Source: Spirochaetota bacterium (GTDB lineage Bacteria > Spirochaetota > UBA4802 > JAFGDQ01). Taken from it: DNA of 64,000 nt. Below, one piece after another: positions 36,941-39,550 of this stretch. Location of the stretch: the NCBI GenBank assembly GCA_043803405.1, contig JAZDKB010000043.1, forward strand, positions 1-64,000, read 5' to 3'. Position 1 is the stretch's first letter; every line of letters starts with the position of its first letter. Below the pieces are notes generated by a model, which had not been told where the DNA came from, ran no database searches, and worked only from the letters and a program-made list of their open reading frames with translations. The position numbers and the translations under genes are program-made.

Positions 36941-37465
36941 ATGAATGAAAAAGAACGTTTGAATGCCCTGAAAGTGGCTCTTAATAACGAGACCAGGGAA
37001 AGAGAATTTTATCTTAAACATGCCGAAAGAACGAAAAACCCTCTTGGCAAAAAAATGTTTCAGCAAATAGGGGATGATGAACTGGAACACTATGAGAGGC
37101 TGAAACAGCTGCATCAAAAATGGATTAAGCAGGAAGCCTGGCCGGAAACTGTTCCTTTAAAAGTTAAGGATACAATTGTAAAAGACATTCTGCTTGAGTT
37201 TATAAAGAATGTTGATAAAACAGCCAAAGGAGATTCAGATGATTTGGCTGCCGTACGGACAGCGCTTGAATTTGAGGCTAAGGGATCAAAGTTCTATGCC
37301 GGGCTGCGCGACAGTGTAACGAATCCGAAAGAAAAGGATTTTTTTGATCTCCTGTCAAAAATGGAAAGCGAGCATTATGCTTCTCTAAGGGACACTGAAG
37401 AATACTTTATTGATCCTGCTTCCTGGTATAGAAAAACAGAACATCACATGTTTGACGGCGCATGA
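36941..37465 (+). CDS. Ferritin-like / rubrerythrin-family di-iron protein
   Basis: ALNNE...FY, DDELEHY, ALEFE...FY, MESEHY (ExxH pairs); GGAGG RBS. Confidence 0.88.
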   Translation: MNEKERLNALKVALNNETREREFYLKHAERTKNPLGKKMFQQIGDDELEHYERLKQLHQKWIKQEAWPETVPLKVKDTIVKDILLEFIKNVDKTAKGDSDDLAAVRTALEFEAKGSKFYAGLRDSVTNPKEKDFFDLLSKMESEHYASLRDTEEYFIDPASWYRKTEHHMFDGA

Positions 37466-37496: not shown

Positions 37497-38891
37497 TCAG
37501 TAATACAGGTCCCTTTCGCCGTGCTTAATGCGATCAAGCTTCTTTTGTACTTCTCCGCGGAAGCCATCACTGCCTATCATGGCAAGGTTTTTTTTAATCT
37601 GCTTTTCCCCGAATACGCGCGTCTCGGGCTCAGCATAATCCTCAAGATATTCCTGGAAAGTAAGCAGGGCATTCGGGCCGCATATCTTGCCTATTTCTCC
37701 TGTCTTTGCAAGAGCCATAAAACGGTCGCCAGTGCGCCCCTGCCTGTAGCACGCTGTGCAGAAACTCGGCAGGAACCCGTCCGTGCAAAGCTCCCTGTAA
37801 ATCTCGTTCGGCTTGCGCGAGTCATCAACCTGGAACTGTTTTGTATTTTCTTCTTTCTCGTCATCAGGCAGCTCTCTGTATCCGCCAACGCCTGTGCACG
37901 AACCTGCGGATATTTGTGAAACGCCGAGCTTCAGGAGACGGCGCCTTGCTTCCGCGCTTTCTCTCGTGGACAGTATTATTCCTGTATACGGCATCGCCAG
38001 CCTTACAAGAGCGATTATCTTCGCGAAGTCCGCATCGCTTACAAGATAAGGATATTTTTTCAGATCAACGCCCTGGGCAGGACGCAGACGCGGAACGGAA
38101 ACAGTGTGCGGGCCTACACCGAAGTCCGCCTCAAGCTGAGCGGCGTGCATCAAAAGTGCAATAAGCTCGTATCTGAAATCGTACAGGCCGAACAGAATGC
38201 CGGAGCCCACATCGTCAATGCCTGCCTCCATTGCCCTGTGAAACGCAGTGAGATGGTACTCGTAATCCGACTTCGGCCCTGCGGGATGATATCTCTTATA
38301 AGAATCCTTATGATAAGTCTCCTGGAACAGAATGTATGTGCCTATGCCCGCGTCTTTCAGTTTTCTGTAATCCTCAACAGTTGTTGCGGCGATATTTACA
38401 TTTACGCGCCGTATGTTCCCGTGCTCGTTCCGCACCTTGTAAATAGTCGCAAGCGATTCAAGGACATACTCAAGCGGATTCTCTTTGGGGTCTTCCCCTG
38501 TCTCGATAGCCAGGCGCTTGTGCCCCATTGCCTCAAGAGCCTGCACTTCAAGCGCAATCTCTTCCTGCGTAAGCTTGCGGCGGACAATGTCGCTTCCGCT
38601 GTGATATCCGCAGTATGTGCAGTGATTAATGCAGTAATTGGAAAGATACAGAGGCGCAAATATTACTATGCGGTTGCCGTAAATATCTTTCTTCACCTCT
38701 TCGGCTGTCTCGAATATTCTGGCGAGCGTTTCCTTGTCTTCGCACCACAGGAGCGTTGCCGTTTCCTGAATGCTGAGGCCCTTGCCCAGTTTGGCCTTTG
38801 CTATAATTTCGTCCAGCCCGCGCTGTTTTTTTCCTTCTTCAAGATACTCCAGTACTTTTTCATGATTGATAAAATTGTAATTGCTGTTCAT
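37497..38891 (-). CDS. hydG: [FeFe]-hydrogenase H-cluster radical SAM maturase HydG
   Basis: CINHCTYC, GPHTVSVPR, and C-terminal CTAC-x22-C auxiliary cluster motif, which distinguishes it from ThiH. Confidence 0.93.
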   Translation of the reverse strand: MNSNYNFINHEKVLEYLEEGKKQRGLDEIIAKAKLGKGLSIQETATLLWCEDKETLARIFETAEEVKKDIYGNRIVIFAPLYLSNYCINHCTYCGYHSGSDIVRRKLTQEEIALEVQALEAMGHKRLAIETGEDPKENPLEYVLESLATIYKVRNEHGNIRRVNVNIAATTVEDYRKLKDAGIGTYILFQETYHKDSYKRYHPAGPKSDYEYHLTAFHRAMEAGIDDVGSGILFGLYDFRYELIALLMHAAQLEADFGVGPHTVSVPRLRPAQGVDLKKYPYLVSDADFAKIIALVRLAMPYTGIILSTRESAEARRRLLKLGVSQISAGSCTGVGGYRELPDDEKEENTKQFQVDDSRKPNEIYRELCTDGFLPSFCTACYRQGRTGDRFMALAKTGEIGKICGPNALLTFQEYLEDYAEPETRVFGEKQIKKNLAMIGSDGFRGEVQKKLDRIKHGERDLYY

Positions 38892-38950: not shown

Positions 38951-39214
38951 TCATTTTTTTGTCATCAAAGCCCTTGCAGTAACCCCGCTTACATTGCCAA
39001 GCTGGCCTGTAAGCGAGTTTATTTCATCTTCAGTGCCGTCAACGATCAAAGACACGACAGCGACTTTTCTTTCGTGATATGGAATGCCCATGCGGCCAAT
39101 AACTATATGACTGTATTTGCTGATTATATTATTTATTGCTTCCTGCGATTCCTGCGGGTGTTCTATTACAATACCTAAAACACCGAGCCTTTTTATATCC
39201 ATCATCTTCTCCAT
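38951..39214 (-). CDS. TM1266-family iron-only hydrogenase system putative regulator (start possibly 39202)
   Basis: LGVLGIVIE, IGRMGIPY, INSLTGQLGN; immediately upstream of hydG. Confidence 0.9.
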   Translation of the reverse strand: MEKMMDIKRLGVLGIVIEHPQESQEAINNIISKYSHIVIGRMGIPYHERKVAVVSLIVDGTEDEINSLTGQLGNVSGVTARALMTKK

Positions 39215-39332
39215 TGAAAGCAGTCGTTAATGTTTGCGGAATTCCTATTTGCCGGATTTAATTTTAACTGAAGAAAATAAAAGATGGGAAGATTGTAGTC
39301 TGTTCTTAATCTCACGGCAACAGACAGGTCTC

Positions 39333-39364
39333 AAAAATAAAAAATCCCGCCTTACCGGGTGGGA
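39333..39364 (-). terminator. Premature intrinsic terminator in the TM1266-hydG leader
   Basis: Minus strand ucccacc-cgguaa-ggcggga-uuuuuuauuuuu, about 120-130 nt upstream of the start codon. Confidence 0.65.
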
Positions 39365-39465
39365 GTTAAGTTCACATAGCCGGATTGCCAAACAGTAATT
39401 ATCTTACAGTTATGCAATCAGCAACTCTTCCTTCACCTCAGGCAAAACCTTGCTTTCAGGAATCC
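39365..39465 (-). ncRNA. Candidate cis-regulatory RNA (unassigned family)
   Basis: GC-enriched and foldable by eye: uuccu/aggaa stem enclosing gcaa-gguu-uugc, and a long gauugc/gcaauc hairpin; lies between the promoter and the terminator. Confidence 0.5.
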
Positions 39466-39521
39466 GTTTATTACAGGCTCGTTAATAAAGAATAAATCTC
39501 AATTAAAAGCCTTACAATACT

Positions 39522-39550
39522 ATAATAAGAAAATTATGTTTTTACGTAAA
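39522..39550 (-). promoter_or_regulatory. Sigma70-type promoter for TM1266-hydG
   Basis: Minus strand TTTACG-N17-TATTAT. Confidence 0.5.

Follow-up and report, generated by a model that had tools for sequence, protein, structure and literature searches.

A conserved leader RNA with two tandem G.A loops upstream of TM1266 and [FeFe]-hydrogenase maturation genes, probably read by the TM1266 protein

The closest described counterparts of the leader RNA reported here are the protein-controlled attenuators of the PyrR/pyr operon of Bacillus (RF00515), TRAP/trp and HutP/hut, in which the leader likewise carries a binding hairpin, an antiterminator and a terminator. The resemblance extends to a first gene that encodes the regulator (here a candidate), to a bound state that is predicted to be off as it is for PyrR and TRAP, to biosynthesis and transporter genes joined in one regulon, and to the coexistence of transcriptional and translational versions. 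The present system differs from PyrR in that its candidate regulator has a NikR C-terminal/ACT fold instead of a phosphoribosyltransferase fold, its RNA has no RF00515 match, and the helix that forms its putative binding site has pseudo-two-fold symmetry and two tandem G.A loops; the system lies outside the PyrR family proper. Cobalamin riboswitch regulons, which cover synthesis genes plus btuB, provide a second parallel. There, too, one element stands over synthesis genes or over a TonB-dependent receptor or ECF/ABC importer, but our core has no sequence or structure match to that riboswitch and is probably protein-mediated. A K-turn consists of a 3-nt bulge beside tandem G.A pairs, and tandem G.A pairs also define box C/D and SECIS elements. 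The core shares with all three the CUGA facing GAGG/GAUG-like strands and the tandem G.A and A.G pairs, but its loops are symmetric, have no 3-nt bulge and occur as two back to back.

The leader lies on the minus strand of the window, the 64,000-nucleotide stretch of Spirochaetota DNA analyzed here, and is followed by TM1266 and then hydG (Table 1). As a whole it is more stable than its shuffles (z -3.0). The promoter-like pair named in the original prediction is present and would place the start of transcription at approximately 39515, though such a pair is weak evidence alone, with 12 promoter-like sites in 1.4 kb versus 5.5 in shuffled sequence. The 5' hairpin just downstream had escaped that prediction; its sequence is not conserved, and the closest relative, locus L208, also has a hairpin there. 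The expected intrinsic terminator exists as well and was missed by a simple terminator scan because its hairpin contains an A.C mismatch. Its distance from TM1266, anticipated at about 120 nt, measures 119-131 nt, and translation likely starts at ATG 39205 or 39202, preceded by GGAGA (39212-39208).

Table 1. Features of the TM1266-hydG leader and operon in the window
Feature	Position	Strand	Evidence and remarks
sigma70-like promoter	39522..39550	-	9/12 consensus; predicted
Promoter boxes	TTTACG 39550-39545, 17 nt, TATTAT 39527-39522	-	sequence
5' hairpin directly downstream of predicted start	39475..39512	-	z -4.9, 0/200 shuffles
Conserved core, 38 nt	39426..39463	-	twin CCUGA-N3/4-NARGG; predicted binding site and anti-antiterminator
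Long spacer hairpin gauugc...gcaauc	39383..39419	-	z -2.8; joins the antiterminator halves; variable among homologs
Predicted antiterminator	39355..39441	-	39441-39423 (core 3' half and linker) pairs with 39372-39355; -13.5 kcal/mol
Intrinsic terminator	39333..39364	-	hairpin 39364-39345 followed by U-tract 39344-39333; -8.6 kcal/mol with a modest z of -1.2
TM1266-family gene	38951..39214	-	TIGR03959, E 7e-30; stand-alone NikR-C/ACT fold; candidate RNA-binding regulator
hydG	37497..38891	-	profile match, TIGR03955, E 2e-199; 663 bits against a cut-off of 312

The other maturation genes of this genome sit on a different contig, where hydA, an aspartase-like gene, hydF and hydE form the 3' end of a multi-subunit [FeFe]-hydrogenase operon (G000:C15:172168-184261, minus strand). 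Our model of the core (R1, described below) finds no match at the hydAFE operon, and the genome holds no second copy of the leader; of the maturation genes, only hydG is split off and placed under the RNA switch. Elsewhere around the locus, a short hairpin-like element (39298-39327) stands just past the terminator, and approximately 30 nt covering the U-tract and the start of this element resemble sites on contigs C20 and C9 (83% identity, E 0.1-1.2). A rubrerythrin/ferritin-like gene (36941-37465, plus strand) is convergent with hydG.

The core consists of two copies of CCUGA-N3/4-NARGG, at 39460-39448 and 39442-39430, which on folding pair with each other; the resulting single hairpin is pseudo-symmetric and contains two tandem G.A loops. 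The original prediction was right about its outer stem, in which UUCCU (39462-39458) pairs with AGGAA (39432-39428) and tandem G.A pairs close the helix. This stem belongs to the conserved core; inward of it follow a poorly paired middle segment, a second G.A-type loop and an inner stem, AGGU/GCCU. The predicted gcaa-gguu-uugc inner hairpin is disfavored (-4.8 versus -8.7 for the nested fold), and the homologs support the nested fold only. Two separate mini-hairpins, the least stable option (-3.8), have no covariation support (221-236/500 shuffles). In the window, two of the four middle positions are paired, likewise in L208, and the stability of the core by itself is unremarkable (z -0.6). 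The consensus first suggested for family searches, CCUGAAA...GAGGUGAAGGAAGAGUUG, is too specific: its first two blocks give at least 119 matches where about 135 are expected, with one before TM1266 among the matches listed.

Conservation was assessed on TM1266-positive genomes from the window's phylum (90 of 301), Bacillota (72/151), Desulfobacterota (4/151) and Bacteroidota (2/151), which yielded upstream DNA from 117 loci, three duplicates or paralogs apart. Among same-phylum leaders, 66 of 79 contain the module xCUGA...NARGx against an expectation of 14.2, and 16 of 31 Bacillota leaders contain it at least twice against an expectation of 0.9; since the pattern was derived from the same sequences, these counts are descriptive. 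With anchors set on sequence alone, 41 of the 117 leaders gave a twin core, and 38 of these have equal 8+8 segments with a paired middle and no 3-nt bulge. The four middle base pairs, taken over 27 distinct 4+4 middles, have 3.33 of 4 positions paired against 1.79 with shuffled partners (0/10000). For covariation, 33 of the 41 cores were aligned, eight with long loops or doubtful register being omitted. The nested fold pairs 82.8% of cells with 58 double changes and scores 0.453 versus 0.196 (0/500 shuffles), exceeding all six slid controls; RNAalifold returns the same fold. The covariation spans four phyla. Eleven Bacteroidota cores, ten of them outside the training set, are 95.9% paired and covary (1/500 shuffles); the shuffles in all these tests ignore relatedness. 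Model R1 comprises 39 positions (about 34 bits) with five invariant and six near-invariant columns along an unbranched helix, and its conserved unpaired bases are confined to the G.A pairs. The core therefore has the shape of a helix with pseudo-two-fold symmetry, carrying two loops of the tandem G.A type. The long hairpin that the original prediction described downstream of it is present in the window, but it is not conserved in sequence and serves as a variable spacer. Many leaders carry an extra one-loop half site upstream of the core. In one family of the window's phylum (f19, L137-L171), the leaders have neither twin core nor terminator and carry just a half site of one loop and a long stem, placed immediately behind the promoter.

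The absence of a match to known RNA classes, as originally noted, is borne out by Rfam scans of the window, the leader and 20 homolog loci. No Rfam 15 family reaches its gathering threshold for the leader RNA, whose best E is 3.1 in a search to E 10; the window returns two tRNAs only, and the homolog loci have a best E of 0.17, all far below gathering. These scans also rule out the word resemblances to SAM/SAH, SAM-III, Moco and cobalamin elements. Motifs published in 2017 should for the most part have entered Rfam. Within limited coverage of subscription papers, no description of RNA-level hydEFG control or of TM1266 function was found. The available main text of PMC11109978 contains no hyd motif and that of PMC5737381 no such motif, and the many-motif supplement of either could hold one; nor does such a motif occur in the accessible parts of PMC8632094 (one supplement file), PMC6429828 (11 supplement files) and PMC3543383. 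According to a table in PMC7039931, in Thermotoga neapolitana under CO2 the TM1266 ortholog, hydE and hydG rise together (5.98, 7.52 and 6.39), with hydF at 1.28. Given covariation, homologs, folding and genomic linkage, the general proposal of an undescribed, conserved attenuator over hydrogenase-maturation genes is supported, and the element is very probably a real, widespread and uncatalogued cis-regulatory RNA.

The predicted antiterminator suggests how the core could act on the terminator. A GAGUU/AACUU helix is present in both predicted states, and the antiterminator is a longer helix that adds GGA/UCC and GGUG/CACC, its downstream strand taking in the terminator 5' arm. The linker alternatives of the original prediction need a correction of register: the antiterminator does overlap the 5' arm, but gaguug does not shift from aacuu onto uaacuc. 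Judged by folding only, the antiterminator appears unable to coexist with either the binding hairpin or the terminator. When pairing of the core is forbidden as a stand-in for binding, the calculated probability of the window terminator increases from 0.10 to 0.80, and masking of its 5' arm in the truncated transcript falls from 0.77 to 0.27.

Across leaders, the predicted switch signal is real but uneven. An intrinsic terminator was called in 35 of the 43 leaders examined, four or five of them mis-called. Five of these 35 were left out of the within-leader shuffles, four for mis-called terminators (L272, L284, L286, L297) and L266 for a called hairpin inside the ECF gene. The core-to-terminator duplex beats such shuffles in 26/30 leaders, with z < -1.64 in 10 and only -0.8 in the window; in Bacteroidota, z ranges from -2.6 to -6.0 in 10/11. 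In truncated transcripts with the core blocked, 5'-arm masking is lost in 10/30 leaders and gained in one; a control block placed upstream abolishes it in none of the 30. At equilibrium, only 4/35 leaders switch (5/23 in another set) and the terminator prevails in 29/35. Two other tests were set aside. A narrow-window antiterminator test singled out 6/25 leaders at the 5% level but did not pick the window, and a swapped-partner test (native -15.6 versus -13.6, 0/20000) is confounded by shared G+C content, so the within-leader shuffles were relied on instead. A different layout is found in 30 of the 79 same-phylum leaders, which lack this terminator arrangement and have the start codon inside copy 2 and the ribosome-binding site in copy 1. 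Transcriptional and translational layouts both predict that the closed core is the off state.

The distribution of the core was followed with model R1. In the window genome, the core, itself a training sequence, is the only match with E < 1. Among 150 Bacillota genomes, R1 gives 46 matches at E <= 0.05, 30 of which are linked: 15 precede TM1266 (seven of them training sequences), 13 stand immediately ahead of hydG or hydE, one covers the ribosome-binding site of an ECF S-component gene, and one precedes hydG with a decayed TM1266-like stretch lying between (L299:1538-1850, G424). The 16 unlinked matches fall nearly all within long frames. All 30 linked matches belong to 26 of the 71 TM1266-positive genomes and none to the 79 negative ones, of which only eight have hydG; in the other 45 positive genomes the strict filters, with 83-95 candidates scored per genome, left no linked match. 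With filters off, 17 of 31 Bacillota TM1266 leaders match at E <= 0.1 (nine being training sequences), and none of the 13 hydG loci from TM1266-negative genomes (eight Bacillota, five Bacteroidota) has a leader match, a small negative control in which four loci have hydG inside an operon and hence out of sight of its leader. All of these counts may be affected by incomplete genomes and include relatives that are not independent of one another. A further 39 relatives of genome G315 contributed 20 matches, including additional TM1266, hydG, hydE, hydF and ABC binding-protein leaders. In its distribution the core tracks TM1266, not hydG.

Ten TM1266 loci have no motif (L218, L220, L225, L226, L231, L234, L238, L239, L360 and L366). 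In eight genomes a motif-less TM1266 follows another gene, and six of them have the motif in front of hydG or hydE at another locus, consistent with TM1266 acting in trans. At the Bacillota loci L220, L225, L226, L231, L234, L238 and L239, the motif-less TM1266 is directly behind an unrelated gene, presumably divIVA or an S4-domain gene. Other neighborhoods include TM1266 followed by a NifH-family gene in a genome with no hydG over the cut-off (L236:719-1477, G466) and by an AIR-synthase-related, HypE-like gene (L242:489-1481, G540); L011-L017, L209, L210 and weak Bacillota rows are distant TM1266-like paralogs below the TIGR03959 cut-off. A protein-seeded metagenome scan produced 299 candidates, none confirmed, and a tighter metagenome pattern matched three times, twice in sequences identical with the L208 leader and once in an unrelated one.

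The element also heads transporter genes. In one Bacteroidota family (that of G659), 13 of 81 genomes encode TM1266 (L357-L369), and 11 of these loci have the motif, with a TonB-dependent receptor gene next and, in both loci read further, EamA after it (L351:9010-12510, L352:719-4196). Ten of the 11 motif-bearing genomes, which may be incomplete, have no hydG match, which shows that the motif is not dependent on hydG. The two examined in greater depth contain three and six hydrogenase large-domain matches and a HydE-like gene, and neither has hydF. Among TM1266-negative members of the family, three of six have hydG; the contrast with 1/11 is only suggestive, hydrogenases having been checked in two of the 11. 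Ignavibacterium album is not a case without hydF and hydG, as PMC3362086 records hydEFG there. Elsewhere, the motif or TM1266 heads an ECF S-component gene (L266:1501-2035, G357) and NMT1/SsuA-type ABC binding-protein genes (L354:768-3311, G392; L356:525-2955, G799; L353:8883-9875, G170); in G392 the ABC genes lie between TM1266 and hydF-hydE-hydG-like genes.

TM1266 is a single domain of 83-87 residues, predicted with confidence (pLDDT 92), and contains no DNA-binding domain, as the original prediction had suspected. Its fold is that of the NikR C-terminal/ACT domain (Foldseek E 2.6e-6 to 2y3y; VIA Z 13.1, rmsd 1.6, 80 aligned), with a Pfam NikR_C match at E 1e-4; an Atlas look-up returns the same family only (TIGR03959/PF21699). 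The T. maritima TM1266 structure (2nzc, four chains) is called uncharacterised, and although a structure has been solved since 2006, the name is still only putative. The model thus shares its fold with the NikR C-terminal domain and with stand-alone ACT domains, but TM1266 lacks the ribbon-helix-helix DNA-binding domain of NikR and, among 78 sequences, any conserved His or Cys, the residues that bind nickel in NikR. Instead, R34, G36, G63 and G66 are invariant, positions 64 and 74 are Lys or Arg in 94-100% and R2 is retained in 90%; the window protein has Gln at the otherwise basic position 64. By analogy with NikR, and from the four chains of 2nzc, TM1266 may be a homo-oligomer. In a tree of 76 of 118 rows (83 columns, rough supports), from which no donor or direction is claimed, the window protein groups with L208 (Bacillota) and L205 (98/97), apart from most same-phylum sequences of the translational layout. 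The L208 RNA, found independently by pattern, shares the window's RNA sub-type.

We consider it likely that the leader works by TM1266-mediated, PyrR-like attenuation, with the core as the predicted TM1266 binding site. Such a site is favored over a ligand-sensing riboswitch because the core is small and two-fold symmetric, has few conserved unpaired bases, and follows TM1266 and not hydG. In the unbound leader, the 3' half of the core would pair with the terminator 5' arm and allow read-through; bound TM1266 would hold the core shut, so that the terminator forms and the genes are off. In many same-phylum relatives, the closed hairpin would bury the ribosome-binding site and AUG and thereby turn off translation. 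A TM1266 homo-oligomer could recognize the two G.A loops, related by symmetry, in the way that a dimer recognizes a palindrome, and may also act in trans on the leaders of hydG, hydE, hydF and the transporters. The activity of TM1266 probably responds to a small molecule from H-cluster metabolism, a possibility about evenly balanced against simple autoregulation; the ACT-like fold and the co-regulated transporters are hints only of metabolite dependence.

Three alternatives have to be weighed. The core could itself be the aptamer of a riboswitch, with a small molecule or ion (Fe2+, Tyr, SAM or an H-cluster precursor) as its direct ligand and TM1266 no more than a co-regulated gene. Small riboswitch aptamers exist, tandem G.A loops can bind metal ions, and the terminator/antiterminator platform, the variant that buries the ribosome site and the combination of synthesis and transport genes are all typical of riboswitch regulons. 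We regard this as unlikely, however, in view of the small size of R1, the limitation of conserved unpaired bases to the G.A pairs, the unbranched symmetric helix and the occurrence of linked matches only in TM1266-encoding genomes, even with TM1266 elsewhere. That the core is bound by a different protein, such as HydE, HydF, HydG or some unlinked regulator, with TM1266 as a co-travelling metabolic partner, is quite unlikely: symmetry argues only for an oligomeric binder, and ten TM1266 loci have no motif, but ten motif-bearing Bacteroidota genomes have no hydG match, the two tested also have no hydF, and TM1266, with its invariant basic residues, is the only gene that the linked cases were seen to share. 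That the repeat is a transcription-factor operator on DNA, with a constitutive or separate terminator, is highly improbable, for although direct repeats of a partly palindromic word do lie downstream of a promoter and the terminator does prevail at equilibrium in most leaders, the middle bases vary freely yet stay complementary between copies with many G.U pairs, the spacer is anywhere between 2 and about 20 nt long, AUG and ribosome-binding site lie within the element in 30/79 leaders, and the terminator arms match the tail of the core.

If TM1266-mediated attenuation is correct, a new fold would be added to the short list of RNA-binding attenuation proteins, and binding could be assayed directly with the 38-nt target and the 83-residue protein. 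Taken as a marker, the motif points to transporters in the regulon: the TonB-dependent receptor with EamA, the ECF S-component and the NMT1/SsuA-type ABC systems. The receptor operon hints at a candidate importer of a hydrogenase-cofactor precursor. Tentatively, and as a possibility that we hold to be doubtful, TM1266 could be a ligand-sensing RNA-binding regulator that together with the core exerts make-or-import control over a diffusible H-cluster precursor. Where hydG is present, synthesis would be controlled; in Bacteroidota with hydrogenases and without hydG or hydF, import through the TonB-dependent receptor and EamA would be controlled instead. The transporters that the motif marks make testable how HydG-less hydrogenase bacteria might obtain their cofactor, with a bearing on engineered biological hydrogen production, and, if the make-or-import scheme is true, an organometallic cofactor would pass between bacteria by cross-feeding, as happens with vitamin B12.
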